Part shown: positions 29-64,000 of the stretch, in pieces
How the letters are laid out: every line of letters starts with the position of its first letter
How positions within the stretch are numbered: position 1 is the stretch's first letter
Assembly (NCBI GenBank): GCA_963796275.1
Contig: CAWCKY010000006.1
Location: 160,001 to 224,000, forward strand
DNA length: 64,000 nucleotides
Source: an uncultured Acidobacteriota bacterium
GTDB lineage: Bacteria > Acidobacteriota > Blastocatellia > RBC074
Reading direction: 5' to 3'
The notes under the pieces: model-generated
The model's database searches: none
What the model was told of the DNA's origin: nothing
Seen by the model: only the letters and a program-made list of their open reading frames with translations
Made by a program: the position numbers and the translations under genes

Positions 29-3000
29 ATGGTGATGAAAGGTAAAGCATATATGTTCAGCTCTAGTGTAGAAGTACGAGATAAGAACATTGAAAAGGAA
101 AGCAAGGCGACGATCGAGGGATTCAGGCTGTCCCCGCAACAGGCGCATCTGTGGTTGTTGCAGCAAGAGGCCCAATATCCACCTTACAATTCCGAATGTG
201 TCGTGTTGATCAAGGGACCCCTGGATGCGCAGTTGTTAGAGGCGGTCCTCAATCAGGTCGTGAGGCGGCATGAAATCTTGCGTACCACCTTTCGCCGCTT
301 GCCCGCGATGACCCTGCCACTACAGGTCATCTCCGAAAAGGGGCAGGTGATGATGCGGACTTGCAATTTGAACGGCCCGGTGGCTCACGCGCAAGAAGGC
401 TCGATCGAATCATTACTTAAAGAGACCGGCCTTGACGAAGCCGGTCGGACGCCCTTCGATTTTGAACGGGGACCGATGTTGCAAACTACACTGGCGCGAC
501 TCACGCCGGAGACGCATCTGTTGTCGCTCAGGCTGCCGGCGTTGTGCGCCGATGCGGCGTCGCTCGAAAATCTGGCGCGGGAAATCAGCCGCGATTACGC
601 GGCTCACTTCAATGGCGCTGAGGCGCCCGATGAGCCGTCGCAATACGCCGATCTTGCCGAATGGCAGAATGAATTGCTGGAATCGGCGGAGACAAAGGCC
701 GGCCGGGATTATTGGCGCGAGCGATCGTTGGCTGCGCCTCTCGTCGCGCCTCTTCCTTTTGAAAATCGGCGCGCGGAAAAGAATAAGACCGGATCGGCGC
801 TGGGCCGCTTTACCCCGCGATCTCTGCCGGCCGCGGTGGATCCGGATCTGGCGGCGCAAATCGCAGCATTGGCTCATAGACACGGAACTTCAATCAAGAT
901 CGTACTGCAAGCCTGCTGGCAAATCCTGCTCTGGCGCGGCGCCGGAGAGATTCCCATCGGCGTCTCTTACGACGGTAGAAATTATGAAGGGCTGCAAGAC
1001 GCACTGGGATTGTTTGTACGCTTCCTGCCAATAAATTGCCACCTGGAAGAAGACTTCACATTCGTTGAGGTTCTGAACCAACTCGGTGAATCGGCGCGTG
1101 AGGCGCAGGCGTGGCAGGAATGCTACACCTGGGAACAGAAAGATGATAACGGTCTTACATTCTTCCCGCTTTGTTATGAATACTCGGACCTGCACACCGG
1201 CTATCAAGCAGGTTCGAGCGCTTTTTCAGTCGTGCATCTGTCCGCTTGCACGGACCGTTTTAAACTCAAGCTCGCCGCGCTCCATCATGCCGATCGCTTG
1301 ATCCTGGACATCCACTACGACGCCGACCTCTTCACGCGCGATGACATCGCCCTACTGGCTCGGCAGTATCTGACTTTACTCGGCAACGCCGTCGCGGCTC
1401 CCGGCGCCGCGCTCGAGGAGTTGAGCCTGCTCGGAGAGACACAGCGGGAGCGTATCCTGCGCCAGTTCAATCCGGCGCCCACCAGCTTCTCGCCCCGTCC
1501 CATCCATCATCTAATCGAGGCTCAGGCAGCGCTCAGGCCCGAAGCCACGGCGGTGGTGGTGGAAGACCAGCAACTGAGTTACGGCGAACTCAACCGTCGC
1601 GCCAACCAACTGGCCCATCACTTGCAAATGCTGGGCGTCGGTCCTGAAGAGGTGGTGGGCTTGAGCCTCGAACGCTCGGTGGAGTTGGTGGTGGGGATGC
1701 TGGCGATTCTGAAAGCTGGAGGGGCATACCTGCCGCTGGACCCGGCTCTGCCGGCCGAGCGGCTGGCGGGCATGATGGCGGCCGCGAGGCCGCGGGTGGT
1801 GGTGACGCAGGAGAGATTGCGGATAGGGGATTGGGCGGCCTCCACCACAGAAAATGATGACTGGGGATTGGGGGCTGAGGACTGGGAATGTACAGATATG
1901 TTGCGCCAGCTCCGAGTCCCCATATTCGTTGTATCCGGGCGTCGCGCACGAGCAGAAGGGTCCACGGCAATCCTCAATCCGCAATCTGCAAACCGCAAAC
2001 CCGTGATGGTTTGTCTGGATGCGGAGGGGGAGATGATAGGGAGTGAAAGCGATGAAAACCCCGGCAGCCAGGTGGGGCCGGAGCATCTGGTTTACGTGCT
2101 GTTCACCTCGGGTTCGACCGGGAGGCCGAAAGGAGTGGCGGTCGAGCACCGGCAGCTGCACGCATATCTGGAAGGAGTGCGGGAGCGGTTGGGACTGCCG
2201 GAAGAGGCGAGCTATGCGACGGTGACGACCTTCGCGGCCGATTTGGGGCACACGGCGATCTTTCCGGCGCTGTGCGGGGGAGGGACGCTGCACGTGGTGA
2301 GTAAGGAGCGAGCGGCAGACGCGTGGGGGATGAGTGAGTATTTCAGGCGGCATCGGATCGACTGCCTGAAGATAGTGCCGTCGCACTTGAAGGCGCTGTT
2401 GGGGGTGAAGGATGGGGCGCAGGCATTGCCTGGGCGGCGGCTGGTGTTGGGGGGAGAAGCGTCGAGCTGGGAGTTGATCGGGCGTGTGCGGGGGTTGGCG
2501 CCGGAGCTGAGGATAATGAATCACTACGGGCCGACGGAGACGACGGTGGGAGTGTTGACCTGTGAGGTGGAGCAAGAGGGAGAGCAAGAGAGTGGGAATG
2601 TGCCGTTGGGGCGACCGCTGAAGGGAGCGCGGGTGTACGTGCTGGACCGGCGGATGGAGCCAGCGGCGGTGTGGGTAGTGGGAGAGGTGTACGTGGGAGG
2701 GGAGCAGGTGGCGCGCGGCTATTTGAATGAAGCGGAGCAGACGGCGGTGCGATTCGTGCCGGATCCATACAGTGAGGAGGAGGGGAAGAGGTTGTACCGG
2801 ACGGGAGATTTGGGGAGGTACATGCCGGATGGACGAGTGGAGTTTCTGGGACGAGCGGATGATCAGGTGAAGATAAGAGGGTACCGGATCGAGTTGGGAG
2901 AGATCGAGGAGGCGCTCAAAGAGCATGCGGGAGTGGGAGAGAGCGTGGTGGTGATAAGCGAGAGCGCGGATGGGGAGAAGCGGCTGGTGGCGTATGTGGC

Positions 3001-4906
3001 GGCGAGAGAGGGGATGGAGATCGAGGGGAGCGAGTTGCGGCGATATATGAGTGAGAGATTGCCCGAGTACATGGTACCTGGAGCGATAGTGAAGTTGGAG
3101 CGGATGCCGTTGACGGCGAACGGGAAGTTGGATCGAGGGGCGTTGCCGGAGCCTGAGAGTGAGATGGAGGGAGAGTATGTGGCGCCGCGGACGCAGATCG
3201 AAGAACTGGTAGCCGGCGCCTGGGCCGAGGTTTTAAAGCTAGATGAGATTGGTGCTCACGATGATTTTTTCGAATTGGGCGGGCACTCTCTGCTGGTTAC
3301 CCGCGTCGCTTCTCGTTTGTCCGAAGCCATTCAGATAGAGATCCCTTTTCAAATCTTCTTCGAGAAGCGGACGGTGGCCGAGCTCGCCGAGAGCATCGAG
3401 GCAGCCCTTCGAGGAGAACAAGGTTTGCGAATGCCGCCCATACTGCCGGTAGCGCGAGATCGGGAATTACCTCTCTCTTTCGCCCAGCAACGGCTCTGGT
3501 TTTTCGATCAATTGGAGCCGAACAGCTCCGCCTACAACATTCAAGATGCGGTTCGCCTCGCGGGGCGGCTCGACTCGCGAGCCTTGGAGCAAACGCTCAG
3601 TGAGATCGTGCGGCGCCATGAGGTCTTGCGAACCAGTTTCCCGGCGGTCAACGGGCGTCCGGCGCAGGTGATCGCCGAAGCCAGGCCGATGAGGTTGCCG
3701 ATAGTCGATCTAAGCGATCTGCCGCAGTCGCAACGGGAGGCTGAAGCGAGTCGGCTTGTTGCGGAGGAGGCCGTGCGGCCCTTCCGCTTGGATCAGGGAC
3801 CGTTGTTGCGAGGCGGATTATTAAGGCTCCAGGAGGATGATCACATCCTGATATTCACAGTGCATCACATTATCAGCGATGCCTGGTCAATGGGCGCGCT
3901 GGTTCGAGAAGTGGCGGCGCTCTACGCGGCTTTCTCCGCAGGGAGCCCCTCGCCCTTGCTCGAGCCACGCGTCCAGTACGCGGACTACGCGCATTGGCAG
4001 CGCGAGTGGTTGCGCGGAGAGGTTCTGGATCGTCATGTGTCTTACTGGAAGGAACGGCTCGACGGCATTCCAGCGGCGCTGCTACTGCCCACCGACCGGC
4101 CCCGACCGGCGACGCAGACGTTTCGCGGCGAGCGGCATTTCCTGGAGCTTTCTCGACCGATGACCGATGCCATCAAAGCGCTGAGCCGCCACGAAGGTGC
4201 GACTCTTTTCATAACACTGCTGGCGGCCTTTAAAGTTCTGATGCGCTACTACGCTTCGCAGGACGACATCGTGGTGGGGACCAACGTCGCCAATCGCAAT
4301 CACTCTGAGACCGGGGACATGGTGGGGTTCTTCGTCAACCAGCTGGTGTTGCGCTCCGATCTGTCGGGCGATCCAGGGTTTCGAGAGTTGCTGAGCCGCG
4401 TTCGTCGCGTAGCGTTGGAAGCGTACAGTCATCAGGACCTGCCTTTTGAGAAGCTGGTTGAAGAGCTACAGCCGCGCCGAGATATGAGCCGCTCGTTGTT
4501 GTTTCAGGTCAAATTCGAGATGCAAGAAGGCATCAGTCGCATCCTCGAGCTTCCGGGCTTGACGCTGTCACCTATGGAGAGCGAGCACAAAGTGGTGAGA
4601 CACGATCTGCACCTTTCAATGTGGGAGCGCGAGCAAAGGTTGAGCGGCGCGTTGCAGTACAACATCGACCTCTTCAGCGCCGGCGCGATAGAGAGGATCG
4701 CGCGCGATTTCGTTGCCCTTCTTGAAATGATCATGGAAGAGCCGGACGCCAGGCTGAGTGTGTTGGAAGAAAGGCTGCTTGAAAAGGGCAGGCACCAAAA
4801 GATGAAGGAAGAGAAAGAATTGGAAGAAGCCAGCCTGAAGATGCTGAGAAGCAAGAGACGAAAAGCCGCATTAAGCGCGAAGGATAGCCAATATCCTATA
4901 TCTTGA
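29..4906 (+). CDS. NRPS1: interface-type C* - A(Asp) - T - C(terminal)
   Basis: 1625-aa ORF. The N-terminal C-like domain begins EGFRLSPQQ and has LPALCAD in place of HHxxxDG. A motifs YVLFTSGSTGRPKG, NHYGPTE, YRTGD; pocket residues read D-L-T-K-V-G-H-V-G-K (Asp-type). T motif GGHSL; final C domain HHIISDAWS with a basic C-terminal tail. The true start may be one of the nearby downstream ATGs. Confidence 0.93.
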   Translation: MVMKGKAYMFSSSVEVRDKNIEKESKATIEGFRLSPQQAHLWLLQQEAQYPPYNSECVVLIKGPLDAQLLEAVLNQVVRRHEILRTTFRRLPAMTLPLQVISEKGQVMMRTCNLNGPVAHAQEGSIESLLKETGLDEAGRTPFDFERGPMLQTTLARLTPETHLLSLRLPALCADAASLENLAREISRDYAAHFNGAEAPDEPSQYADLAEWQNELLESAETKAGRDYWRERSLAAPLVAPLPFENRRAEKNKTGSALGRFTPRSLPAAVDPDLAAQIAALAHRHGTSIKIVLQACWQILLWRGAGEIPIGVSYDGRNYEGLQDALGLFVRFLPINCHLEEDFTFVEVLNQLGESAREAQAWQECYTWEQKDDNGLTFFPLCYEYSDLHTGYQAGSSAFSVVHLSACTDRFKLKLAALHHADRLILDIHYDADLFTRDDIALLARQYLTLLGNAVAAPGAALEELSLLGETQRERILRQFNPAPTSFSPRPIHHLIEAQAALRPEATAVVVEDQQLSYGELNRRANQLAHHLQMLGVGPEEVVGLSLERSVELVVGMLAILKAGGAYLPLDPALPAERLAGMMAAARPRVVVTQERLRIGDWAASTTENDDWGLGAEDWECTDMLRQLRVPIFVVSGRRARAEGSTAILNPQSANRKPVMVCLDAEGEMIGSESDENPGSQVGPEHLVYVLFTSGSTGRPKGVAVEHRQLHAYLEGVRERLGLPEEASYATVTTFAADLGHTAIFPALCGGGTLHVVSKERAADAWGMSEYFRRHRIDCLKIVPSHLKALLGVKDGAQALPGRRLVLGGEASSWELIGRVRGLAPELRIMNHYGPTETTVGVLTCEVEQEGEQESGNVPLGRPLKGARVYVLDRRMEPAAVWVVGEVYVGGEQVARGYLNEAEQTAVRFVPDPYSEEEGKRLYRTGDLGRYMPDGRVEFLGRADDQVKIRGYRIELGEIEEALKEHAGVGESVVVISESADGEKRLVAYVAAREGMEIEGSELRRYMSERLPEYMVPGAIVKLERMPLTANGKLDRGALPEPESEMEGEYVAPRTQIEELVAGAWAEVLKLDEIGAHDDFFELGGHSLLVTRVASRLSEAIQIEIPFQIFFEKRTVAELAESIEAALRGEQGLRMPPILPVARDRELPLSFAQQRLWFFDQLEPNSSAYNIQDAVRLAGRLDSRALEQTLSEIVRRHEVLRTSFPAVNGRPAQVIAEARPMRLPIVDLSDLPQSQREAEASRLVAEEAVRPFRLDQGPLLRGGLLRLQEDDHILIFTVHHIISDAWSMGALVREVAALYAAFSAGSPSPLLEPRVQYADYAHWQREWLRGEVLDRHVSYWKERLDGIPAALLLPTDRPRPATQTFRGERHFLELSRPMTDAIKALSRHEGATLFITLLAAFKVLMRYYASQDDIVVGTNVANRNHSETGDMVGFFVNQLVLRSDLSGDPGFRELLSRVRRVALEAYSHQDLPFEKLVEELQPRRDMSRSLLFQVKFEMQEGISRILELPGLTLSPMESEHKVVRHDLHLSMWEREQRLSGALQYNIDLFSAGAIERIARDFVALLEMIMEEPDARLSVLEERLLEKGRHQKMKEEKELEEASLKMLRSKRRKAALSAKDSQYPIS
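1253..3225 (+). repeat. Near-identical direct repeat (Asp A domain), copy 1; copy 2 at 12283..14255
   Basis: Sequences align at constant offset 11030 with only a few substitutions seen (e.g. 1261, 1287-1288, ~2284). Confidence 0.95.
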
Positions 4907-4942
4907 AATCTATATCTTCATATCTCAGCCCTGAAAAGAAGA

Positions 4943-11121: not shown

Positions 11122-14100
11122 GTGCATAAGAAAAACCACACAACCATAGAAGGATTTCGTCTTTCGCCTCAACAAGCGCGCCTCTGGATGTTGCAGCAGG
11201 ATGTCCGATCGGCGCCGTACACGGCCCGATGTTCCATCTCGATCGAGGGCGCGCTTGATGCGCAGCTTTTGGAGGCGGCGCTCAATCAGGTAGTTCAGCG
11301 GCATGAAATCCTACGCACCACATTTCACCGTTTGCCCGCAATGATGCTCCCGCTGCAGGTGATCGCGGGCGATGGCAGGCTGGTGATCCGGACGCAAGAT
11401 TATAGCGGATGGGCGGAGGAGGAGCAGAATGCCGGGCTCGAGTTGTTGGAGCGCGAGGCGGACCAGACGCCGTTCGACCTTGAGCGAGGGCCGCTGGCGC
11501 GTGCTCATCTCATCAAACTGGCGCCGGATCGGCACCTGCTACTTCTGCTGCTGTCGGCGTTGTGCGCGGATCGGGCGAGCTTGGAGAACCTGGCGCGGGA
11601 GATCGGGTTCTGTTACGCCGCTTACCTGAACGGCGACGAACTGCCAGCCGCGCCAGCGCAATACGCCGACCTGGCCGAATGGCAGAACGAGTTGCTCGAA
11701 TCGGAGGAGACGGAAGCCGGCCGGGAGTATTGGCGGCGGCGTGATCTTTCGAGCCTCTTGCGTATCAAGGCGCCGTTCGAGAACCGGCGCGGGGACGGCG
11801 AGGGTGAGCTGGCGGAATTTGCGCCGCGGCTTCTGTCCGCGACGGTAAATGCCGAACTGGCGGCGAAGGTCGAGGCGCTGGCCCGCGAGCTGCATAGTTC
11901 TGAATCGAACATTCTGCTGGCCTGCTGGCAAGCATTGCTCTGGCGACTTACCGGTCAGACAGAGATCATCGCCGGCGTCGCTTATGAGCAGCGGAAACAC
12001 GACGAACTCAAGGGGGCGCTCGGACTCTTTACCAAGTATTTACCGGTTCATTGCCTCCTGGGAGCGGACAGGCGATTGATCGACGTTTTAGAGCAGATCA
12101 ACAACTCAGCGCGCGAGCTATATAAATGGCAAGAGTATTTCACCTGGGAACAGATCGCCGGATCGAATGGACATCTCAATGCCACGCCTTTCTTCCACGT
12201 CTGCTTCGAGTTTTCAGAACAACCCGCGATTTACCGGGCGGGCGCAGGCGCCTTCTCGATCTCGCGTCAAGACGCCTGCGTTGACCGTTTCAAACTCAAG
12301 CTCGCCGCGCTCCATCGCGCCGATCGCTTGATCCTGGACATCCACTACGACGCCGACCTCTTCACGCGCGATGACATCGCCCTACTGGCTCGGCAGTATC
12401 TGACTTTACTCGGCAACGCCGTCGCGGCTCCCGGCGCCGCGCTCGAGGAGTTGAGCCTGCTCGGAGAGACACAGCGGGAGCGTATCCTGCGCCAGTTCAA
12501 TCCGGCGCCCACCAGCTTCTCGCCCCGTCCCATCCATCATCTAATCGAGGCTCAGGCAGCGCTCAGGCCCGAAGCCACGGCGGTGGTGGTGGAAGACCAG
12601 CAACTGAGTTACGGCGAACTCAACCGTCGCGCCAACCAACTGGCCCATCACTTGCAAATGCTGGGCGTCGGTCCTGAAGAGGTGGTGGGCTTGAGCCTCG
12701 AACGCTCGGTGGAGTTGGTGGTGGGGATGCTGGCGATTCTGAAAGCTGGAGGGGCATACCTGCCGCTGGACCCGGCTCTGCCGGCCGAGCGGCTGGCGGG
12801 CATGATGGCGGCCGCGAGGCCGCGGGTGGTGGTGACGCAGGAGAGATTGCGGATAGGGGATTGGGCGGCCTCCACCACAGAAAATGATGACTGGGGATTG
12901 GGGGCTGAGGACTGGGAATGTACAGATATGTTGCGCCAGCTCCGAGTCCCCATATTCGTTGTATCCGGGCGTCGCGCACGAGCAGAAGGGTCCACGGCAA
13001 TCCTCAATCCGCAATCTGCAAACCGCAAACCCGTGATGGTTTGTCTGGATGCGGAGGGGGAGATGATAGGGAGTGAAAGCGATGAAAACCCCGGCAGCCA
13101 GGTGGGGCCGGAGCATCTGGTTTACGTGCTGTTCACCTCGGGTTCGACCGGGAGGCCGAAAGGAGTGGCGGTCGAGCACCGGCAGCTGCACGCATATCTG
13201 GAAGGAGTGCGGGAGCGGTTGGGACTGCCGGAAGAGGCGAGCTATGCGACGGTGACGACCTTCGCGGCCGATTTGGGGCACACGGCGATCTTTCCGGCGC
13301 TGTGCGGGGGAGGAACGCTGCACGTGGTGAGTAAGGAGCGAGCGGCAGACGCGTGGGGGATGAGTGAGTATTTCAGGCGGCATCGGATCGACTGCCTGAA
13401 GATAGTGCCGTCGCACTTGAAGGCGCTGTTGGGGGTGAAGGATGGGGCGCAGGCATTGCCTGGGCGGCGGCTGGTGTTGGGGGGAGAAGCGTCGAGCTGG
13501 GAGTTGATCGGGCGTGTGCGGGGGTTGGCGCCGGAGCTGAGGATAATGAATCACTACGGGCCGACGGAGACGACGGTGGGAGTGTTGACCTGTGAGGTGG
13601 AGCAAGAGGGAGAGCAAGAGAGTGGGAATGTGCCGTTGGGGCGACCGCTGAAGGGAGCGCGGGTGTACGTGCTGGACCGGCGGATGGAGCCAGCGGCGGT
13701 GTGGGTAGTGGGAGAGGTGTACGTGGGAGGGGAGCAGGTGGCGCGCGGCTATTTGAATGAAGCGGAGCAGACGGCGGTGCGATTCGTGCCGGATCCATAC
13801 AGTGAGGAGGAGGGGAAGAGGTTGTACCGGACGGGAGATTTGGGGAGGTACATGCCGGATGGACGAGTGGAGTTTCTGGGACGAGCGGATGATCAGGTGA
13901 AGATAAGAGGGTACCGGATCGAGTTGGGAGAGATCGAGGAGGCGCTCAAAGAGCATGCGGGAGTGGGAGAGAGCGTGGTGGTGATAAGCGAGAGCGCGGA
14001 TGGGGAGAAGCGGCTGGTGGCGTATGTGGCGGCGAGAGAGGGGATGGAGATCGAGGGGAGCGAGTTGCGGCGATATATGAGTGAGAGATTGCCCGAGTAC

Positions 14101-17100
14101 ATGGTACCTGGAGCGATAGTGAAGTTGGAGCGGATGCCGTTGACGGCGAACGGGAAGTTGGATCGAGGGGCGTTGCCGGAGCCTGAGAGTGAGATGGAGG
14201 GAGAGTATGTGGCGCCGCGGACGCAGATCGAAGAACTGGTAGCCGGCGCCTGGGCTGAATTGCTGGGGTTGGAGCGGGTGGGGGTGAATAACAACTTCTT
14301 CGAGCTGGGCGGACACTCGCTGATGGCCACACAGCTCATCTCTCGCGTGCGGGAAGCCTGCGGTGTCGAGCTGCTGCTCCGCAGTCTGTTTGAGGCGCCG
14401 ACAGTGGCCGGTATGGCCGCAAGTCTTGAAGCGGCGATCAGAGCCGGAAAGTGGGCACCCCCCACCTCAATCGAAAGATATCCGAGGGACGTGGAATTGC
14501 CACTTTCATTCGCCCAGCAGCGGCTGTGGTTCCTTGATCAGTTGGAGTCGGGCAGCCCCTTCTACAACATCTTCGCACCCGTGCGGTTGAAAGGGCGGCT
14601 CGATCTACAGGCGCTGGAATGTACGCTCACGGAGATTGTACGGCGCCACGAAGCGCTGCGGACAACCTTCCGGACGGTGGAAGGGCGCGCCGTTCAGGTG
14701 ATCGCCGAGGCCAGACCGCTTAGTTTGCCGGTGACTGACTTGAGCTATTTGCCGCCGGAGCGAAGAGAAGCCGAAGCGCGGCGAATGGCCGAAGAGGAAT
14801 CGCAGCGGCCTTTCGATCTGGCTCGCGGTCCGTTGCTGCGGGCGCGGTTGTTACGGCTGGATGAAGACGAGCATCTGGCGATGCTAACTCTGCACCACAT
14901 CATTTCGGATGGTTGGTCGGCCGGGATTCTGATCCGTGAGCTCGCCGCGCTCTACCAGGCCTTCAATGCGGGGCTGCCCTCGCCGCTCGCGGAGCTGCCC
15001 ATTCAGTACGCAGACTTCGCCGCGTGGCAGCGTCGGTGGTTGCAGGGCGAGACGTTGGACATACAGCTTGCGTACTGGAAACGGAAGTTGGGCGGCGACA
15101 GGGCGGCGTTGCAACTGCCCACGGATAGACCGCGTCCGGCGGTTCAGAGATTTCGCGGAGCGCATGAAGCTTTGGCGCTGGGCGCGGGCCTCTCTCAGGC
15201 TCTCAAGGCGTTCAGCCAACAGGAGAATGTCACGCTGTTTATGACGCTGCTCGCAGCGTTCAAAGCGTTGCTCCATCGTTATACCGGGCAGGACGACATC
15301 ATCATCGGCTCGCCAATCGCCAACCGCAACCGCATCGAGATCGAGGGGATGGTCGGATTCTTCGTCAACACACTGGCGCTGCGCGGCGATCTATCAGGAG
15401 ATCCGAGTTTTCGAGAGCTGGTAAGCCGGGTGCGAGAGGTAGCGCTGGAGGCGTCCGCTTATCAGGGATCTGCCTTTTGAGAAGCTGGTTGATGAATTGC
15501 AACTCGCGCGTGACCTGAGCCGTGCTCCGTTATTCCAGGTGGTATTCGTGTTACAGAATGCGCCGAGGCAGGTTCTGGAGCTGCCGGGGCTGACTCTGAC
15601 TCCGATGGAGATCGAGGGCGAGACGGCGAAATTCGATCTGATTCTGGGCCTCAGCGAGACGGATCAGGGGCTGATGGCGAAGGTCGAATACAACACGGAC
15701 TTGTTCGAAGGCGCGACGATACGCCGGATGCTTACGCATTTTCAAAACCTGCTTGAAAGCGTGGTCGTTGAGCCACGCCAGCGACTCTCCGAATTGCCGC
15801 TGCTCGGCGAAGTCGAGCGCCGGCAATTGTTGGAATGGAACGCGTCGAGCGTCCGTTACCCGGCGAAGACTTGCCTGCATCAACTCTTTGAAGCCCAGGC
15901 GGCGCGAACGCCCAATGCTGTCGCGGTCACTTTTGATGATGAGCGATTCAGCTACCAACAGCTCAACGCCCGCGCCAATCAATTGGCCCACCACTTGCGC
16001 GCGCTGGGAGTTGGGCCGGATGTTCTGGTCGGTCTCTGCCTGGAACGTTCCCTCGATCTGGTTGTCGCAATCCTGGCCGTTCTCAAGGCCGGCGGAGCTT
16101 ACTTGCCACTCGATATGGCCTATCCCAAAGATCGGCTGGCCTTCATGTTGGAGGACAGTCAGGCGCCGGTGCTGTTGACTCAACAGCGCCTGCTGGAGCA
16201 ATTGCCTGAACATCGGTCGGGGGCGAACTGCCCGCATCTGATTTGTATAGACAGCGAATGGGAGTTGATTGAGCGGGAGAGTGCGGAGAATCCGACAAAC
16301 GAGGCGACGGCCGATAACCTGGCCTATGTGATCTATACCTCAGGGTCGACCGGCAGACCGAAAGGAGCGCTGGTCAGTCACGCCAACGTCGTACGCCTCT
16401 TTTCAGCAACGCAGGATTGGTATCACTTCGATGAACGCGATGTATGGACGCTCTTCCACTCATATGCCTTCGACTTCTCGGTCTGGGAGTTATGGGGTGC
16501 GCTGCTCTATGGCGGGCGGTTGGTTGTGGTTCCTTACTGGGTGAGCCGTTCGCCGGAAGCCTTCCACGAATTGTTGCGCCGCGAGCATGTGACCGTGTTG
16601 AACCAGACGCCATCGGCCTTCCGCCAATTGATTCGCTCGGCAGCGCTGCCGTCAGCCCCGGTGGAAGAGCAGGCCGAGACCGCGCCGGCGCTGGCGTTGC
16701 GGTTGGTCATCTTCGGCGGAGAAGCGCTTGAGCTGAACAGTCTGAAGCCCTGGTTTGACCGCTACGGAGACGAGCTCCCGCAACTGGTCAATATGTACGG
16801 GATCACTGAGACGACGGTGCACGTCAGTTTCCGGCCGATTCGGGCGGCAGATTTGGACGAAGGCAAGGGAAGCGTGATCGGCGGATCGATTCCTGACCTG
16901 TGGGTCTACGTGTTGGACGCGCATTTACGGCCCACGCCGATCGGCGTTCCAGGGGAGATGTATGTGGGCGGTGCCGGAGTGGTGCGCGGCTATCTCAACC
17001 GTCCGGAGTTGACCGTGGAGCGGTTCATCCCCGATCCATTCGGAGCTGAACCGGGGGCGCGTTTATACCGGACGGGAGAATCTGGCGCGTTACTTGGCGG

Positions 17101-19139
17101 ACGGCGATCTGGAGTATCTAGGCAGGATCGATCATCAGGTCAAGATTCGCGGCTTTCGCATCGAACTGGGCGAGATCGAAGCCATGCTCAATACACATCC
17201 GCTGATTGGCGAGGCTGTTGTTTTGGCTAGAGAGGACACGCCCGGCGAGAAACGCCTGGTCGCTTATCTTGTGACGAAGCCGGACACAGCGCCTTCGATT
17301 AGCGAGTTGCGCGAATTCCTGAGACAGAAACTGCCTGAGTACATGACGCCGGCAGCATTTGTGACGCTCGACGCCTTGCCGTTGACGGAAAACGGCAAGT
17401 TGGATCGCCGCGCGTTGCCCGCCCCCGACGTTACGAGACCCGAGTTGGAAGAAATCTATGCCGCTCCGAGCAATGCTCGCGAGGAAATGCTGGCGGAGAT
17501 TTGGGCCAAGGTGCTTGGGCTTGAGCGAGTCGGCATTCACGACAATTTCTTCGAGCTCGGCGGGGATTCCATCCTCAGCATTCAGATCATCGCCCGAGCG
17601 AACCAGGCAGGTTTCCGATTGTCTCCCAAGCAGGTCTTTCAATGCCAAACAGTCGCGGAGTTGGCGGCGGCGGCCGAGACGGTTCCGTCCATTGAAGCCG
17701 AGCAGGGCTTGGTTACAGGCCCGGCGCCGCTCACTCCGATCCAGCGCTGGTTCTTCGAACATCGGTTGCCCGAGCATGACCACTGGAATCAGGCGTTGTT
17801 GTTTGAAACGCGGCAGGCGTTATCACCCGCGCTACTGGAACAGGCGGTTCAGCGATTGATTGAGCATCACGACGCTCTGAGGCTGCGATTCACGCCGGAG
17901 GAAGCGGGCTGGCGCCAAACTATCGCCGAATCGGGCGTATCGACGACTTTCACCGTTATCGAACTGTCCGGCTTACCCGAAGCGGAACGATTATCAACCC
18001 TCGAAGCGAAGGCGGCCGAACTACAGGCCAGCCTGAGCCTGTCTGAAGGGCCGCTGTTGCGGGTCGTCTATTTTGATCTTGGGAATCAGGAAGCGGGCCG
18101 CCTGCTGATCATTATTCATCATCTCGCCGTTGACGGCGTGTCGTGGCGGATTCTGTTGGAAGACTTGCAGATGGCGTACCGGCAGTTGAGTCATGGCGAA
18201 GCGATCGCGCTCCCGCCCAAGACGACTTCATTCAAGCGCTGGGCTGAGAGACTCTCCGAATATGCGCGATCCGAAACGGTAATGGCGGAGCAATTTTATT
18301 GGCTGGACGAAATCCGCGCGCAAGCCGCCAGGCTGCCAGTGGACTATTCCGGCGGCGCGAACACTGAAGCGTCGGCGCGTAGCGTCGCTGTCTCGCTCAC
18401 CGTTGAAGAGACCAGAGCGCTTTTGCAGGAGGCGCCTGAAGCCTATCACACGCAGATCAACGATATATTGCTGACCGCTCTGGGACAGTCTTTAAGGGAG
18501 TGGACGGGCGCCCGCTCGTTGCTCGTGGACATGGAAGGGCATGGCCGCGAGGACATATTCGATAACGCTGACCTGTCGCGCACGGTGGGCTGGTTCACCA
18601 CGATCTATCCCGCATTCCTGCGATTGGAGAAGGCGTTCAATCCGGGAGAGGTTTTGAAGTCGGTCAAGGAGCAGTTGCGAGCCATTCCCCAACGCGGCCT
18701 TGGTTACGGATTGCTACGTTACCTAAGCGGAGATGAAGAGATTGCCCAGGCGTTGCGGCGCCTGCCGCAGGCCGAAGTGAGCTTCAACTATCTGGGGCAG
18801 TTGGATCAGGCGCTGCCGGCGGATTCGCTGCTGGCGCCGGCGCGCGAATCAAGCGGGCCGGTTCACAGCCCGCATGGGCTCCGCAAACATTTACTGGATG
18901 TGCGTGGAAGCGTCGCGCGGGGTCAATTGCATCTGGTCTGGACTTACAGTGAAAACGCACATCGCCGCGCCACTATCGAGCGCCTGGCCCGGAGCTATAT
19001 CGAGGCACTGCGGGGGCTCATCGCGCATTGTCAGTCTCCCGAAGTGGGAGGCCACACACCATCGGATTTCCCGTTGGCGCAACTCGATCAGGTCGAACTT
19101 GATCAGGCGTTCGCGGAATTTGAGTTTGAAGAGAGTTAG
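11122..19139 (+). CDS. NRPS2: interface C* - A(Asp) - T - C - A(Thr) - T - E (two +1 frameshifts, at ~15466 and ~17080)
   Basis: ORFs 11122..15480, 15497..17230 and 17094..19139 join into one NRPS once single extra bases are removed (restoring Q-D-L-P-F-E-K and RTG-D-L-A-R). Codes DLTKVGHVGK (Asp) and DFWNIGMVHK (Thr); T motif GGDSI followed by an E domain (HHLAVDGVSW, EGHGRE, RTVGWFT). Confidence 0.9.
12283..14255 (+). repeat. Near-identical direct repeat (Asp A domain), copy 2
   Basis: Matches 1253..3225. Confidence 0.95.
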
Positions 19140-49400: not shown

Positions 49401-52400
49401 ACCTGGGCCAGTGTCCTCGGGGTGGAGAGAGTGGGAATTCACGATAACTTCTTCTCGCTGGGCGGACACTCATTGCTGGCCATGAAACTGATCGCGCGGA
49501 AGCTGGAGGTCTTCCAGGTGGAACTGCCGCTGCGCCAACTTTTTGAAAAGCCGACGGTGGCGCAATTGGCGGCAGCGATCGTCGGGATGACGAAGCCCGG
49601 GCTGGATCTGCCGCCGATCACGCCGATCCCACGCGATCGGGAACTACCGCTCTCGTTTTCGCAGCAGCGGTTGTGGTTTCTCGATCAACTGGAGCCTGGC
49701 AACTCTTTCTACAACGTGCCCGCGCCGGTGCGCCTCACGGGCGAGCTCAATGTGGCGGCGCTCCGGCAAACCATTGGCGAAATCATCAGACGTCACGAAG
49801 TCTTGCGGACGGTCTATCAAACAGTCGAGGGGAGTCCGGTACAGGTGATCACAAACTCATACTCATTCACGCTGCCGGTGGTTGATTTGAGAGGGGTGGC
49901 GGAAGAGGAACGAGAGGCGACGGTCGCGCGTCTGGTCACGGAAGACTCCCTGCGGCCCTTCGATCTGGCCGAAGGCCCATTGTTCAGAGTCGCATTGCTG
50001 CAATTGGGGGCCGAGGATCATGTTTTGCTATTTACCACGCACCACATCATCTCCGACGTCTGGTCCAAGGGGGTGCTGACGCGAGAGGTTGCGGCGCTCT
50101 ATCAGGCATTCGCCGAAGGAAGACCGTCGCCGCTGCCGGAATTGGCGGTTCAGTATGCCGATTTCGCGCACTGGCAACGGGGATGGTTGCAGGGAGAGGT
50201 TCTCGATGAGCAGTTGTCATACTGGAAGCGGCAATTGGCGGGCAGCCCATCAGTTTTGCAATTGCCCACGGATCGTCCGCGGCCAGCCGTTCAATCATAT
50301 CGGGGGGCCGACCTGGCGATGGCGTTACCCGAAGGGCTGTCGCGGGCGGTGGTGGGATCTGAGCAGGCGCGAGGGCGTCACCCTCTTTATGACGCTGTTG
50401 GCGGCTTATCAAGCGATGCTGTTCCGCTACACAGGGGAGGAGAGCATCAATGTCGGCTCTCCCATCGCGGGCCGCACGCGCCCGGAGACGGAGGGGATGA
50501 TCGGGTTTTTCCTGAACACGCTGGTGTTCCGGACGGATTTTTCGGGCGACCCGAGCTTTCGCGAGTTGTTGCGGCAGGTGCGAGAGACATCGCTGGAAGC
50601 ATACGCCCATCAGGATTTGCCCTTCGAGCAATTGGTAGAGGCGTTGCAACCTGAACGGAAGATGAGCCACTCGCCGCTGTTTCAGGCGGCCTTCGTGATG
50701 CTCAATCTTGCAACGGAGGCGGTGGAGCTTCCGGGTCTGAAGATGCGGCCTGTGAGGGGGGAGGGAAATAGCGCGAAATACGATTTGACACTGTTCGTCA
50801 TCGAAGGCCGCGATGGACTGACGGCGAACGTGGAGTACAGCGCCGATCTGTTCGAGGCCTCTACCATGGCGAGGATGTTGGAGCATTTCTTCGTGTTGCT
50901 GGAAGGCTTGATCGCCAACCAGGATCAGCGTGTGTCATCCCTGCCGCTGATGACCGAGCGGGAGGAGGCGCAGGCGCTGGTCGAGTGGAACGATACCAAA
51001 GTTGAATATCCGGTGGAACACTCGTTGCCCGCCTTGTTCGAAGCGCAGGTTGAACGAACGCCCGAGGCTGTGGCGCTTGTTTATGAAGACACGCAAGTGA
51101 CTTATCGGGAGTTGAATGATCGCGCCAATCGTCTGGCCCATCATCTGCGGCGACTGGGCGTCGAGCCGGAGTTGCTGGTGGGCGTTTGCATGGAGCGGTC
51201 GCTTGAGATGATGGTGGGGATTCTCGGAGTGTTGAAGGCTGGGGGCGCTTACGTTCCACTCGATCCGGCGTATCCGGCGGAGCGTCTGGCCTTCATGCTT
51301 GAAGATTCCCAAGCGCCAGTCTTGTTGACTCAGCAGCGGCTGCTCGATTCGTTATCCGCAACGAGCAATTCGCAATGCCATGTGATTTGTGTGGATGCGA
51401 TAGAGGAGATGCTGGCAGAAGAGAGCGTAGAGAATCCGGCGAGTGGGCCGGACGCCGAGCATCCGGCTTACGTGATCTATACTTCAGGTTCAACGGGACA
51501 GCCCAAAGGCGTGCTCATCTCCCACGGCGCGATCTGCAATCATATGTTATGGCAGTTGAGCCATTTGTCCGTGACCGCGAACGATTGCGTTCTGCAAAAA
51601 ACGGCTTTCAGCTTCGACGCTTCGGGCACGGAGTTCTACCTGCCGCTGTTGGCCGGCGCGCGACTGGTTCTGGCCCAGCCGGGAGGGCATCAAGACGTCG
51701 CCTACCTGATCGATGCGATGATCGAGCGCCAGGTCACCATTCTTCAGTTGGTTCCATCATTGCTGCGAGCGTTGTCGGACGAGCCCAGGTTTGAGCGATG
51801 CGAGAGCCTGAGGCGCGTCATCTGCGCGGGCGAGCCTTTGCTACCCAAGTTACAGGCGCGGTTCAACGCCTGCCTCGGCGCGGAGTTGCACAATCTTTAC
51901 GGCCCGACGGAAGCGGCCATCGACGTGACTTGCTGGCCTCACCAGGATGCGCGGGGGGCGGCTATCGTTCCTATCGGCCGCCCGATCGCCAACACACAAA
52001 TCTACCTGCTGAACTCTGAGATGCAGCCCGCGCCGGTGGGCGTTGCGGGCGAACTGCACATAGGCGGCGCCAATCTGGCTCGCGGGTATCTCAATCGGCC
52101 AGAGTTGACCGCCGAGCGGTTCGTTCCCAACGCCTTCAGTGAAGAGCCCGACGCACGGTTGTACCGGACGGGAGACCTGGCGCGATACCTGCCGGACGGG
52201 GCCATCGAATTTCTGGGACGGAGCGATCATCAGGTGAAGGTGCGCGGGGTGCGCATCGAACTGGGCGAGGTCGAGGCGGCGCTCAGCCAGCATCCCGCGG
52301 TGCGGGAAGCGGTGGTCGTGGCGCGGGACGAGGGTGAGGACGCGGCCGGAGACAAACGGTTGGTGGCTTATCTGGTCAGCGACCAGCAGCCGGCGCCGAC

Positions 52401-55400
52401 AGCCGGCGCCTGGCGCGCCTTCCTGAAGGAGAGGGTGCCGGAGTACATGACGCCGTCGGCCTTCGTGACGCTCGACGCATTGCCGTTGACGCCGAACGGG
52501 AAGATCGATCGGCGCGCGCTTCCGGCTCCCGAAAAGGCGCGCCTCGACTTGGAGAGCGCCTTTGTCGCGCCGCGCAATCCGGTCGAGGAGTTGTTGGCGG
52601 AGACCTGGGCCAGTGTCCTCGGGGTGGAGAGAGTGGGAATTCACGATAACTTCTTCTCGCTGGGCGGACACTCATTGCTGGCCATGAAACTGATCACGCG
52701 AATGCGTGGGATCTTCCAGGTGGAACTGTCGCTGCGCCAACTTTTTGAAAAGCCGACGGTGGCGCAATTGGCGGCAGCGATCGTCGGGATGACGAAGCCC
52801 GGGCTGGATCTGCCGCCGATCACGCCGATCCCACGCGATCGGGAACTACCGCTCTCGTTTTCGCAGCAGCGGTTGTGGTTTCTCGATCAACTGGAGCCTG
52901 GCAACTCTTTCTACAACGTGCCCGCGCCGGTGCGCCTCACGGGCGAGCTCAATGTGGCGGCGCTCCGGCAAACCATTGGCGAAATCATCAGACGTCACGA
53001 AGTCTTGCGGACGGTCTATCAAACAGTCGAGGGGAGTCCGGTACAGGTGATCACAAACTCATACTCATTCACGCTGCCGGTGGTTGATTTGAGAGGGGTG
53101 GCGGAAGAGGAACGAGAGGCGACGGTCGCGCGTCTGGTCACGGAAGACTCCCTGCGGCCCTTCGATCTGGCCGAAGGCCCATTGTTCAGAGTCGCATTGC
53201 TGCAATTGGGGGCCGAGGATCATGTTTTGCTATTTACCACGCACCACATCATCTCCGACGTCTGGTCCAAGGGGGTGCTGACGCGAGAGGTTGCGGCGCT
53301 CTATCAGGCATTCGCCGAAGGAAGACCGTCGCCGCTGCCGGAATTGGCGGTTCAGTATGCCGATTTCGCGCACTGGCAACGGGGATGGTTGCAGGGAGAG
53401 GTTCTCGATGAGCAGTTGTCATACTGGAAGCGGCAATTGGCGGGCAGCCCATCAGTTTTGCAATTGCCCACGGATCGTCCGCGGCCAGCCGTTCAATCAT
53501 ATCGGGGGGCCGACCTGGCGATGGCGTTACCCGAAGGGCTGTCGCGGGCGGTGGTGGGATCTGAGCAGGCGCGAGGGCGTCACCCTCTTTATGACGCTGT
53601 TGGCGGCTTATCAAGCGATGCTGTTCCGCTACACAGGGGAGGAGAGCATCAATGTCGGCTCTCCCATCGCGGGCCGCACGCGCCCGGAGACGGAGGGGAT
53701 GATCGGGTTTTTCCTGAACACGCTGGTGTTCCGGACGGATTTTTCGGGCGACCCGAGCTTTCGCGAGTTGTTGCGGCAGGTGCGAGAGACATCGCTGGAA
53801 GCATACGCCCATCAGGATTTGCCCTTCGAGCAATTGGTAGAGGCGTTGCAACCTGAACGGAAGATGAGCCACTCGCCGCTGTTTCAGGCGGCCTTCGTGA
53901 TGCTCAATCTTGCAACGGAGGCGGTGGAGCTTCCGGGTCTGAAGATGCGGCCTGTGAGGGGGGAGGGAAATAGCGCGAAATACGATTTGACACTGTTCGT
54001 CATCGAAGGCCGCGATGGACTGACGGCGAACGTGGAGTACAGCGCCGATCTGTTCGAGGCCTCTACCATGGCGAGGATGTTGGAGCATTTCTTCGTGTTG
54101 CTGGAAGGCTTGATCGCCAACCAGGATCAGCGTGTGTCATCTCTGCCGCTGATGACCAGTGCGGAACGTAACCGCCTATTGTCAGAGTGGAATGGCACTG
54201 TGTCTGAGTATCCACGCCATGAATGCGTTCATGAGTTATTCGAGACGCAGGTTGAGCGTAGACCTGAAGCGATTGCGATAGTGGGCGAGGAAAATCACCT
54301 GACCTATGGAGAACTCAACCGACGCGCAAATCAACTGGCGCATTACCTGCTTAAGCATGGCGCCGGGCCGGAGACGCCGGTGGCTATCTGCGTTGAGCGT
54401 TCTTCGAAGATAGTTTTGGGATTCTTGGGCATACTTAAGGCGGGCGCCGCCTTTGCACCACTGGATCCAGCCTATCCTGAAGACCGCCTGGCCTTCATAC
54501 TCAATGATGTCCGGGCGCCGCTGCTCTTGACCCAGGAGCGGCTGGTCGAAGAATTACGAAACACCGGAAACGGAACGCACAATACGGAGAGTTATGCTCA
54601 AAACTCCATATTCAAACCTCAATACTCAATCTCCGATCTGCGCGCTGGAGACGGAAGGCGGAATGCGAGTAGTATCGCTCAAGACTCAATCTTCAATCCT
54701 CAAGACTCAATCTCCGATCTGCACGCTGGAGATGGAAGGCGGAATGCGAGTAGTATCGCTCAAGACTCAATCTTAATACCCCACCACCCAACCTCCGAAC
54801 CGCATTCCGCATTCCGCGTTCCCGAAGCGGTCTGTCTGGACTCAGACTGGGAGTTCATCGCCCTGGAAAGCCAGCAGAATCCAACCTGCATAGCTGCGCC
54901 TGAAAACCTGGCTTATGTCATCTATACCTCGGGTTCAACTGGCGCTCCTAAAGGTACGCCGATAACACACAGGAATCTCAGCCCACTAATGCACTGGAGC
55001 AAGGAATATTTCAACCTCGGCGAGTGCACGAAGGTACTGCAAAATCTCAACTGCTGTTTTGATTTTGGCGTTTTCGAGCTATTAACCACAGTCCTATTTG
55101 GCGGGACATTACATTTTGTGGATGGAGATGGGCTGAGTGATTTTTCAGAGTATGCCAGCTATATCAATAGACATCGAATTAATACCATTCATTCTACTCC
55201 GTCATTCGTTAGGAATCTTCTCCCTTTTAGTGATGAACTGGAGAATCTGGAAACGATTCACCTCGGCGGCGAGCCGTTAACGGGGGATTTGGTTGATAAG
55301 GTATTCAATAAAGTCGGAGGCGATTGCGTACTCTACAACGGCTACGGCCCTACTGAAGCCACCGTCAATTGTTCCATCTTTAGAATCGGTAATTGGTCAA

Positions 55401-59010: not shown

Positions 59011-59080
59011 ATCAGTACCGCGAGCGGTAGCGAGCGGGTTGATTGCGAAAGATCCGCTCGCTACCGCTCGCGGTACTGAT
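59011..59080. repeat. Perfect 27-bp inverted repeat (REP-like hairpin, simple form of element A outer arms)
   Basis: ATCAGTACCGCGAGCGGTAGCGAGCGG (59011..59037) is the exact reverse complement of 59054..59080, with a 16-nt loop. Confidence 0.92.
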
Positions 59081-59136
59081 TCGCCGTTCATCAACTAAGC
59101 GTGTAGGCAAAAATTCTGAGGTGTGATCAAAATCAT

Positions 59137-62391: not shown

Positions 62392-62407
62392 TAAGTTCAG
62401 AGTAGAT

Positions 62408-64000
62408 ATGAAAACCATTGAGCTTCTGTCCCGCCTTCGCGGTCTCGACGTTAAACTTTGGACCGAGGCTGAACGACTGCGCTATAGCGCGCCTGACGGC
62501 GTGATAACACCGGCCCTGCGCGCGGAGATGGCTGAACGCAAGACGGATATTCTTGCATTTCTGCGCCGGGCGGAAGCGGCAGTGAAGCCCGCCGCTCCCG
62601 CCATCCTGCCGGTCTCACGCAATGGCGAGGCGCCGTTATCTTTCGCTCAGCAGCGGTTGTGGGTTCAAGAACAACTGTCACCAGGCAGCGCTCTCTACAA
62701 CATCTCCCAGGCAATTCAAGTGAATGGTGGGCTCAATGTAACCGCGCTCGAGCTAACTTTGAACGAGATCGTGCGGCGACACGAAATTTTGCGCACGACT
62801 TTCGCGGCGCCCGATTTCCAGGTGAGCGGAAATCCCGTTCAAGTTATCGTTCCAACGCTTCGTCTGGCGCTGCCGATAGTAGACCTCCAGGAATTCCGGG
62901 AGACGGAACGAGAGGCGGAAACCTGGCGTCTGGCCGCGAGTGAGGCCGGTCGGCCTTTCGATCTTTCCCGAGGGCCGCTCCTGCGCGCCGTCTTGTTGCG
63001 GCTGGGTCGGAAGCGCCACGTGGTTCTCTTCACCCTGCACCACATCATCAGCGACGGCTGGTCAATGGGCGTGCTGGCGCGAGAAATGGGAACGCTTTAC
63101 GAATCCTTCGCCGACGGCCGCCCTTCGCCATTGCCGGAGTTGCCTATCCAGTATGCGGACTTTGCGTACTGGCAGAGGCAATGGCTACAGGGAGAGACGC
63201 TCGCGGCTCAGCTCTCTTACTGGAGGCGGCATCTGGGGGGCGCCCCTGCCTCCCTGGAATTGCCTACGGATCGTCCGCGACCGGCGGTTCAAACCTTTCG
63301 GGGGGCGCATCAACCACTGGCGCTGTCCGCTACTTTATCCGGCTCGCTCAAGGAGCTAAGTCGCCGGGAAGGCGTGACGTTATTCATGACATTATTGGCA
63401 GCGTTCAATACGCTGCTCTATCGTTGCACGGGCCAGGAGGACATCGTTGTCAGCACGCCCACTGCAGGTCGCGCCAATGTCGAACTCGAAGGGTTGATTG
63501 GTTTCTTTATCAACAAGCTGATGCTGCGCGCCGATCTTTCGGGCGATCCGAGTTTCAGTGAATTGCTGGGTCGGGTGCGCGAGATGGTCTTGGGAGCATT
63601 CGCCAACCAGGACGTCCCATTCGAAAAACTGGTGGACGAACTACAGCCGGAGCGGGACCAAAGCCGCACGCCCTGGACTCAGACGGCATTCGTTTTACAG
63701 AGCGCCTCGACCGCATCGCTTGCGGCTCCGGGCCTGATCTTCAGCCCGCTAAAAATCGAAAGCGCGACGGCCAAGACGGATTTGATCCTATCTCTGTCGG
63801 AGCGCCCAGCCGGACTCCAAGGCTCGTTCGAGTTCAACACGGATATTTTCGAGGCTTCGACCATCGCTCGGATGGCCGGCCATTTCCAAACAATGTTGGA
63901 GAGCATCGTCGCTGACCCGGAGCAACGCATCTCGATGCTCGCTCCCTCGCCTGGGATGCTGTTATCTTCGGTCAAACCGTCCCGCATGGATGAACTCGAT
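62408..64000 (+). CDS. NRPS9 (runs off window): TubC_N-type beta-hairpin docking domain - C
   Basis: Not in the ORF track because no stop is reached. Manual translation from ATG 62408 gives MKTIELLSRLRGLDVKLWTEAERLRYSAPDGVITPALRAEMAERKTDILAFL, then PLSFAQQRLW, RHEILRTTF and HHIISDGWS. Confidence 0.88.
   Translation, partial: MKTIELLSRLRGLDVKLWTEAERLRYSAPDGVITPALRAEMAERKTDILAFLRRAEAAVKPAAPAILPVSRNGEAPLSFAQQRLWVQEQLSPGSALYNISQAIQVNGGLNVTALELTLNEIVRRHEILRTTFAAPDFQVSGNPVQVIVPTLRLALPIVDLQEFRETEREAETWRLAASEAGRPFDLSRGPLLRAVLLRLGRKRHVVLFTLHHIISDGWSMGVLAREMGTLYESFADGRPSPLPELPIQYADFAYWQRQWLQGETLAAQLSYWRRHLGGAPASLELPTDRPRPAVQTFRGAHQPLALSATLSGSLKELSRREGVTLFMTLLAAFNTLLYRCTGQEDIVVSTPTAGRANVELEGLIGFFINKLMLRADLSGDPSFSELLGRVREMVLGAFANQDVPFEKLVDELQPERDQSRTPWTQTAFVLQSASTASLAAPGLIFSPLKIESATAKTDLILSLSERPAGLQGSFEFNTDIFEASTIARMAGHFQTMLESIVADPEQRISMLAPSPGMLLSSVKPSRMDELD

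Follow-up and report, generated by a model that had tools for sequence, protein, structure and literature searches.

The assembly line in the window

The stretch of DNA studied here (64,000 nucleotides, referred to as the window; its positions carry the prefix w) covers positions 160,001–224,000 of contig C6 in the 9.46 Mb, seven-contig assembly of an uncultured soil acidobacterium of the Blastocatellia type, and it is probably the central 64 kb of one hybrid polyketide synthase–nonribosomal peptide synthetase (PKS–NRPS) assembly line. Exact domain coordinates were obtained by scanning the whole genome with Pfam and TIGRFAM models. Condensation, AMP-binding, AMP-binding_C and PP-binding domains (Pfam) are found in 15 raw plus-strand open reading frames (ORFs) of the window, which become nine NRPS proteins when the frame breaks described below are read through. 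This agrees with the original prediction of nine colinear NRPS proteins, which had been made from the letters alone. The domain totals of the window are 12 adenylation (A), 12 thiolation (T) and 19 condensation (C)-family domains. All long ORFs of the window are on the plus strand, the GC content is 55–61% except for one dip to 49%, and an Rfam scan of the entire window gives no match at gathering score.

The first protein (w29–4906) consists of a C-like domain without the catalytic histidines (interface-type, 128–1459), an A domain (1517–2725), a T domain (3206–3391) and a C domain (3461–4762). The second (w11122–19139, three raw ORFs) has an interface-type domain (11158–12489), an A domain (12547–13755), a T domain, a C domain (14494–15832), an A domain (15887–16996), a T domain (17490–17672) and an epimerization (E) domain (17724–19106), with breaks at ~15465 and ~17079. 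It is followed by a protein of two raw ORFs (w19145–28922) with three C–A–T modules, of which the first C domain is at 19169–20503 and the second T domain contains the break at ~25460, and by a C–A–T protein (w28915–33654) with a terminal C domain (32215–33543). The fifth protein (w34217–38831, two raw ORFs) has an interface-type domain (34226–35539), an A domain with the break at ~36497, a T domain (37161–37346) and an E domain (37395–38786). In the sixth (w41401–43806), a C domain (41410–42711) is fused to a TauD domain (42895–43761). The seventh (w46425–56341, three raw ORFs) opens with an interface-type domain (46464–47762), continues as A–T–C–A–T–C–A–T and has two breaks, ~50356 and ~53558, that fall within an internal duplication of 2.2 kb. 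The eighth is a C–A–T protein (w59137–62391), and the last (w62408–64000) runs past the window end, beginning with a TubC_N-type docking domain and a C domain (62624–63937).

The whole cluster is ~114 kb in size (C6:121,606 to about 235,914) and has three PKS modules, all upstream of the window and none inside it, and 17 A domains. The scale of 12 or more modules proposed earlier holds for the A domains of the window, which is only the middle of this longer line. These matches directly show which domains are present, in what order they stand and how the junctions fit. All 17 A domains of the cluster, the 12 of the window among them, retain the A10 lysine. The carrier serine motif is seen in every T and acyl carrier protein (ACP) domain checked, and the cysteine and two histidines in each of the three ketosynthase (KS) domains. 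With its repeated C–A–T modules and intact core motifs, this is a modular type I NRPS, or hybrid PKS–NRPS, line.

Module junctions and interface-type domains

A maximum-likelihood tree was built from all 28 C-family domains in the cluster. It resolves four clades with 100/100 support, made up of the E domains (five), the C domains placed after an E domain (four, post-E), the low-scoring C-like or interface-type domains (five) and the ordinary C domains (13); one further domain is on a long branch. Whenever an E domain is followed by another module, the following C domain falls in the post-E clade (four of four, 100/100 support), as is the case for the first C domain of w19145–28922 and for the C domain of the C–TauD fusion. 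The carrier motifs track the E domains as well. The T domain or ACP preceding an E domain reads GGDS[IVM] in five of five cases, the 13 NRPS T domains without a following E domain read GGHSL, and the remaining two ACPs, both of PKS modules, have GGDSL and GLDSI. Both observations are in agreement with the earlier claim that each E domain is followed by a C domain for D-configured donors.

The members of the interface-type clade lack the HHxxxD motif (five of five in the cluster, four of four in the window) and have an LPSLCAD-like (P/S)(S/A)xCAD sequence there. Four of them start proteins of the window, each straight after a protein ending in a working C domain, so that the predicted pairing of a terminal C domain with an interface domain is found at four window junctions. 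The A domain next to the interface-type domain has the pocket code DLTK(V/I)GHVGK in three of the four window cases and DFWHFGQVDK in the fourth; the code next to the fifth, upstream interface-type domain is DAKDLGVVDK (Glu type). At these four junctions a TauD-family Fe/2-oxoglutarate hydroxylase is fused once (w41401–43806), is present once as a stand-alone gene just upstream (w9869–11089, plus strand, directly 5' of the interface-type–A–T gene), and is not adjacent in the other two. The proposal of up to four β-hydroxylated residues is accordingly matched by four junctions that could carry the modification and by just two TauD enzymes in the window to make it.

The H, E and H positions are invariant in eight of eight aligned TauD sequences, which would fit a 2-His-1-carboxylate iron site. 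A triad of C domain, TauD domain and His-less domain with an Asp-like A domain recurs, at 32–52% identity, in Myxacorys, in Herpetosiphon and in a metagenome-assembled genome (MAG) of Pyrinomonadaceae. Among the PDB sequences, those most similar to an interface-type domain are the teixobactin synthetases Txo2 (E = 1e-41) and Txo1 (E = 9e-40), which is uninformative on function; a complex prediction of an interface-type domain with a TauD domain, run without controls, has a score of 0.00.

Interface-domain β-hydroxylation units of NRPS siderophores were reportedly described by Reitz et al. in 2019. In the antiSMASH 8 paper, interface domains and these hydroxylases are called siderophore-associated, and the cyanochelin C preprint describes interface-type domains with TauD as 'β-OH-Asp-specific', the arrangement in cyanochelin C (ccsJK/ccsL) being C + TauD followed by the next ORF, for β-OH-Asp. 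Because of this arrangement, the antiSMASH 8 association, the recurring triad and the invariant TauD residues, the four window junctions are read here as putative on-line β-hydroxylation sites.

Adenylation domains and the predicted peptide

The pocket residues were read from an alignment of the 17 A domains of the cluster, using FDxS, PS, GGE and NxYGPTE as landmarks. Modules 1 and 2 of the window share the code DLTKVGHVGK (Asp, reported for Asn too). They are followed by module 3 with DFWNIGMVHK (Thr, then an E domain), module 4 with DAFFLGVTFK (Ile), module 5 with DILQLGLIWK (Gly), module 6 with DAWTIAAVCK (Phe), module 7 with DAFFLGVTFK (Ile) and module 8 with DLTKIGHVGK (Asp, then an E domain). 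The last four codes are DFWHFGQVDK (module 9, residue X), DATQIALIDK (module 10, residue Y), DFFHHGGVNK (module 11, residue Z) and DAFWLGGTFK (module 12, Val). The Val, Glu and Asn readings of the codes of this cluster are putative, and DFWHFGQVDK is taken to be Glu-like.

In two published papers, DFWNIGMVHK is a code for Thr and DAFFLGVTFK for Ile, with Val variants; DLTKVGHVGK is listed for Asp and Asn domains, mostly Asp; and DAWTIAGVCK (N-methyl-Phe) and DILQLGMIWK (Gly) are each one residue off the codes of this cluster. The independently aligned codes match the string predicted originally, Asp-Asp-D-Thr-Ile-Gly-Phe-Ile-D-Asp-X-Y-Z-Val. Its nine assignable substrates, its D-residues and its module order stand, with the correction that DLTKVGHVGK fits Asn as well as Asp. 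Codes of the X, Y and Z type are confined to this cluster within the genome (4 of 65 A domains).

Several near-identical stretches (96.9–99.8%) are centred on A domains, being w1253–3225 versus 12283–14255, w48765–50961 versus 51967–54164, w20592–21800 versus 30434–31642 and w26850–28493 versus C6:133562–135205; they indicate that modules were recently duplicated or underwent gene conversion with one another. An 81-bp tandem repeat at w54596–54798 (2.2–2.5 copies, 88–92% matches) gives rise to a low-complexity insert within the DFFHHGGVNK domain.

Frame breaks

Seven frame breaks lie inside domains, at w ~15465, 17079, 25460, 36497, 50356 and 53558, and at w-1648 upstream of the window. The six breaks in the window are in a C domain (three), in an A domain or between its subdomains (two) and in a T domain (one). 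Six of the break sites read GATC in the DNA, and the remaining one reads GAATC. When considering the break intervals, which come from overlapping alignments, GATC is found within 6 nt in five of the seven, compared with a random mean of 1.1, and five or more were reached in 31 of 20,000 draws; a single repeat is represented twice among the seven sites. Genome-wide, GATC occurs 72,083 times, twice the ~36,400 that base composition would predict. Nanopore basecalling is known to be prone to motif-linked indels at methylated sites.

The proteins of a related cluster (G001, described below) read straight through five of the seven break sites. Contigs from four public runs (X1 to X4) were also aligned to w15300–26000. 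The letter at w15465 is left out in all four runs, and the letter at w17079 in two, which are the sole runs with depth there. The contigs without the letter in X1 and X3 at w15465 and in X1 at w17079 closely resemble the window, and the one of X3 that spans w15465 is otherwise identical to it. Runs X2 and X4 contain relatives at 90–95% identity, and thus not this strain. As judged from these comparisons, the seven frame breaks are very probably sequencing or assembly errors.

Tailoring and transport genes

A block of tailoring genes, all on the plus strand, is located between the first and second NRPS proteins. It begins with a NodU/CmcH-type carbamoyltransferase (w4943–6757, with Carbam_trans_N and Carbam_trans_C matches) and an OTCase-family transcarbamylase (w6813–7829), a candidate diaminopropionate transcarbamylase, which scores below the cut-offs of the ornithine carbamoyltransferase models (268.3 bits versus 306; 262.3 versus 280.85). 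Next are an SbnA-family pyridoxal phosphate enzyme (w7853–8932) and an SbnB-family dehydrogenase (w8911–9948) of L-2,3-diaminopropionate synthesis, adjacent genes that overlap at w8911–8932. Both are above the cut-offs of their NCBIfam equivalog models (TIGR03945, 442.6 bits versus 349.95; TIGR03944, 410 bits versus 326.9). The genes for the proposed diaminopropionate and ureido chemistry, including two carbamoyltransferases, are therefore present. OTCase-family enzymes acting as diaminopropionate transcarbamylases, and the route from diaminopropionate to β-ureidoalanine, are covered in a review (PMC4581275).

Two genes for permeases of the MacB/FtsX type (w56338–57621 and w57708–58961, plus strand, family matches) confirm the MacB-type permeases reported from the sequence. 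A secreted Ig-like 'choice-of-anchor D' protein (w38895–40406, plus strand) has a counterpart at the same place in the G001 cluster, with 65% identity.

The gene at w44694–45671 had been called a carboxylase-like enzyme. This was not upheld, as the encoded multi-pass membrane protein (325 aa) has no Pfam match at E ≤ 10 and hence none to PF05090, the family of vitamin K-dependent γ-carboxylase-like (HTTM) proteins. A feature match in the Atlas (rank 13, score 0.87) points, as a weak lead, to a cluster with HTTM in 13% of its members. This gene and w45701–46342 (213 aa), which has no Pfam match either, are in a 2.6 kb insertion (w43806–46425) in the lowest-GC bin of the window (w44001–48000, 49%). 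The insertion is not in the G001 cluster, and the carboxylase-like gene, considered as a possible pathway member, was rejected because this syntenic relative lacks the entire insertion.

A non-coding element of 390 bp, which has inverted ends and palindromes in its interior, is present in two direct copies (w40405–40794 and w44109–44501, 92% identical) that flank the C–TauD gene. A genome-wide blastn search with it gives 77 matches, of which 15 are at least 240 bp and cover a ~250-bp core at 85–100% identity, and neither copy is present in the G001 cluster. The element looks like a family of miniature inverted-repeat transposable elements (MITEs).

Flanking regions

Upstream of the window, the gene order is a TPR protein; a first PKS module, PKS1 (KS, acyltransferase (AT), ketoreductase (KR) and ACP); C–A(Val)–T–C–TauD; C–A(Phe)–T; a second PKS module, PKS2 (KS–AT–dehydratase (DH)–enoylreductase–KR–ACP); interface-type–A(Glu)–T; a third PKS module, PKS3 (KS–AT–KR–DH–ACP), with an E-like domain; and C–A(Asn)–T–E–C. 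The E-clade domain after the ACP of the third PKS module (C6:152276–153763) has HN for HH, its second histidine being replaced by asparagine, and a ~31-residue insert; probably it is inactive and acts as an adaptor for the next C domain, which is of the post-E type. Downstream of the window, the docking-domain protein continues and has a second C-like domain, a divergent one. The other genes on this side are a DUF3326 gene interrupting an A domain; an A–T–E-like unit; an MFS_3 transporter; an MbtH-like protein; an HlyD protein; an ABC ATPase; and a stand-alone thioesterase. The outer flanks encode central metabolism on one side and DNA repair on the other.

In the stretch C6:224022–229859 (w64022–69859), the DUF3326 gene has its own ribosome-binding site and ATG, and it separates the first ~41 profile positions of the A domain from the remainder. 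A second Acidobacteria MAG (locus L094) also has DUF3326 with an N-terminally short A–T–C unit, at 80% identity, and in three cyanobacteria DUF3326 is not adjacent to NRPS genes. The genome has at least four further large NRPS loci (on contigs C1, C2, C4 and C7), three of them with an adjacent TonB-dependent receptor.

Related clusters

A syntenic cluster extends from the TPR gene to the MFS gene in G001, a Blastocatellales MAG (contigs C60 and C13, locus L001), the proteins being 63–87% identical, and because of this shared extent the locus is treated as one line rather than several. A division into two adjacent clusters was considered and rejected, as all junctions from C6:153,975 onward are matched (E domain to post-E C domain, or C domain to interface-type domain) and synteny with G001 extends over the entire region. 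The two clusters share the order TPR, PKS1–3, tailoring block, Ig-like protein, C–TauD, MacB pair and MFS, as well as the codes for Phe, Glu, Asp (four times), Thr and Ile and the code DATQIALIDK. The G001 cluster differs in having Ala-, Gln-, Orn- and Asn-type codes in mid-line and two modules, not three, after C–TauD, and in lacking the DFWHFGQVDK and DFFHHGG(V/I)NK domains, the DUF3326 insertion and the low-GC insertion. It is likewise uncharacterised and, as judged from these codes and genes, is a diversified sister and not a copy. The Thr A domain of G001 has two in-frame stops a few bases apart (C13:9602–9610, locus L087), and its second C–A(Phe)–T gene is split by a frameshift.

The search for relatives was made with the C–TauD protein only, against one genome per species for 185,579 species. 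It finds two uncultured Acidobacteriota MAGs at 84% and 72% identity and one at 52%. Among the full-length matches to both the C and TauD parts, named genomes do not exceed 45%, which for this protein is in agreement with the predicted absence of a high-identity named relative. The listings of a literature search on Acidobacteria natural products include no matching compound, and the part seen of the erutacidin/trigintamicin paper has nothing bearing on this cluster. This cluster is a real orphan, for which no characterised counterpart was found, and its design is one that is already known.

Discussion

It is likely, when all steps are taken together, that the nine window proteins act in gene order and would add ...(Asp/Asn)-(Asp/Asn)-D-Thr-Ile-Gly-Phe-Ile-D-Asp-X-Y-Z-Val... 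to a chain begun upstream, to which three PKS modules and the Val, Phe, Glu and D-Asn modules would contribute. At four junctions, a working C domain would end one protein and a catalytically dead interface-type domain would open the next, presenting the carrier-bound acidic residue to a TauD hydroxylase, which would convert it into a β-hydroxy residue. SbnA and SbnB would make L-diaminopropionate, which the OTCase-like enzyme would convert to β-ureidoalanine, and one of the A domains of X, Y and Z may load this residue. Y (DATQIALIDK) is the best guess, as the tailoring genes are shared with G001 and, among the unusual codes, this one alone. The product should be a large, acidic and partly hydroxylated peptide with polyketide parts, and it would leave the cell via the MacB-type pump (genes for HlyD and an ABC ATPase are found downstream), via the MFS exporter or via both. 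The frame breaks would be basecalling or assembly errors at GATC sites, the genes being intact in the organism.

Several observations weigh against parts of this explanation. The whole cluster has three TauD enzymes for five interface-type domains. Two of these domains precede Glu-like codes, not Asp, and one of the two is the sole C-like domain after a PKS ACP, which strict gene order cannot explain. The substrate assignments rest on pocket codes, not assays, and a literature search gave no published match for the codes of X, Y and Z. At the start of the line, no A, CAL or FAAL domain of a loading module is found before the first KS, which keeps its catalytic cysteine and looks like the peptide-accepting type, and G001 has an extra first C–A–T gene at this place that is not in this genome. 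At its end, the last protein finishes with an E-clade domain, no thioesterase is built into the line, and the sole thioesterase is the stand-alone PF00975 protein downstream. The flanks, which the original prediction had pointed to for the starter and release domains, contain neither a recognisable loading module nor a cis release domain. Concerning the frame breaks, independent contigs were checked at just two of the seven, the third site in the aligned stretch (w25460) is not among the rows listed, and the best run may share its sample with the assembly, being then a second reading and not a second organism.

It could be argued that the array is a decaying pseudogene, with seven real frameshifts and no product, as seven breaks occur across ~110 kb of coding sequence, the first C–A–T gene is apparently lost relative to G001, MITE-like repeats and a low-GC insertion lie within the cluster, and an A domain is split by the DUF3326 gene. 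However, the breaks are all at one motif, GATC; at two of them the extra letter is missing from independent contigs, some of which show no other difference from the window; no in-frame stops are seen in the domain matches of the window; and the catalytic motifs checked are intact except in the interface-type domains (A10 lysine 17 of 17, carrier serine in all checked, TauD H/E/H eight of eight). Also the DUF3326 gene with a truncated A domain recurs at 80% identity in another acidobacterial MAG. A decaying array is thus very improbable. A different order of assembly upstream of the window is a more serious alternative, which we rate at not quite an even chance. Here the chain would start at the fully reducing PKS2 and proceed via C–A(Phe)–T, PKS1, C–A(Val)–T–C–TauD, interface–A(Glu)–T and PKS3, becoming colinear into the window. 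The KS of PKS2 has an ordinary DTACSSS motif, and those of PKS1 and PKS3 have (S/T)ACSTS, which we take to be the peptide-accepting type. Strict gene order, by contrast, places a second His-bearing C domain after C–TauD and leaves the interface-type domain before A(Glu) without a working C domain upstream, and in G001 an intact C–A(Phe)–T is beside PKS1 and a broken copy at the place of the gene studied here, which gives one intact copy per genome. On the other side, the break in the G001 copy could have arisen in assembly, and the reordering concerns DNA outside the window.

With regard to function, the product could be a large peptide metallophore, in which several β-hydroxy-aspartates bind Fe(III) as in cyanochelins, cupriachelin and pyoverdines, the uptake genes being elsewhere in the genome. 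The siderophore association of interface-type domains with TauD, in the antiSMASH 8 paper and in the 'β-OH-Asp-specific' description of the cyanochelin C preprint, agrees with this, and the three Asp-type interface modules could provide a hexadentate set. A gene for an Nramp metal transporter is 3.6 kb upstream, and the downstream MFS transporter matches PF05977 (MFS_3). The enterobactin exporter EntS belongs to the MFS_3 family. Against this, no TonB-dependent receptor is found in the window, as predicted, nor among the 17 flank ORFs scanned. The nearest PF00593 matches on C6 are at 35.7 kb and 293.7 kb, ~85 kb upstream and ~58 kb downstream of the cluster (121.6–235.9 kb). In contrast, a strong receptor match lies 4–10 kb from each of three other NRPS loci in the genome (C1:1226515, C7:1045865 and C4:195256). 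The predicted product, having 17 residues and three ketide units, is to our knowledge far larger than the known siderophores. Lipopeptides with β-OH-Asp that are not metallophores exist as well, for example turnercyclamycin (named in PMC12971057). A metallophore is therefore regarded as unlikely. The distant receptors and the size of the product favour an exported peptide that is not a siderophore, although the preference for an exported bioactive peptide, as originally proposed, stays a lean and is not a result.

A bolder proposal, which is made tentatively and is less likely than not, is that the cluster specifies a new structural class: a ~17-residue peptide interrupted by polyketide units, with four or five on-line hydroxylated acidic residues (Glu-type included) and a diaminopropionate-derived ureido residue, being an exported metal- or calcium-dependent antibiotic and not a siderophore, for which the His-less interface domains would be general sockets for a few trans-acting hydroxylases. 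The role of interface domains is unsettled, and the cluster is in any case a natural experiment on it, as it has five sockets, three hydroxylases, two sockets that are not for Asp and a diversified sister cluster to compare with. Few natural products are known from Acidobacteriota, and because this line is near-complete and long-read-resolved, with a readable peptide core, making the predicted peptide by chemical synthesis, or expressing the line heterologously, is feasible once the GATC errors are polished out. The assembly carries motif-linked indels, at which annotation pipelines would wrongly split or drop these genes.

Comparison with known systems

The OTCase-family transcarbamylase beside diaminopropionate genes within an NRPS cluster is also seen in the viomycin and zwittermicin A clusters, according to PMC4581275. 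Unlike in those clusters, diaminopropionate would here be made by SbnA/SbnB-type enzymes, and there is a second carbamoyltransferase of the NodU/CmcH type, the substrates of both carbamoyltransferases being predicted. The turnercyclamycin-type β-hydroxy-Asp lipopeptide antibiotics (PMC12971057) are alike by description only, as non-metallophore NRPS products with β-OH-Asp from TauD-type enzymes. There is a likeness in domain arrangement with the interface/β-hydroxylase units of siderophores such as cyanochelin C, in which C + TauD end one NRPS and the next opens with a C-like domain without HHxxxDG, an Asp-type A domain and a T domain. The counterparts in Myxacorys almedinensis are 45% (C), 45% (TauD) and 38% (His-less domain) identical to the domains of this cluster. 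The present cluster is unlike the siderophore units in having four of these units in the window and five overall with three hydroxylases, two of them preceding a Glu-like A domain and one following a PKS module, and in that its host line is a 17-residue hybrid without uptake genes.

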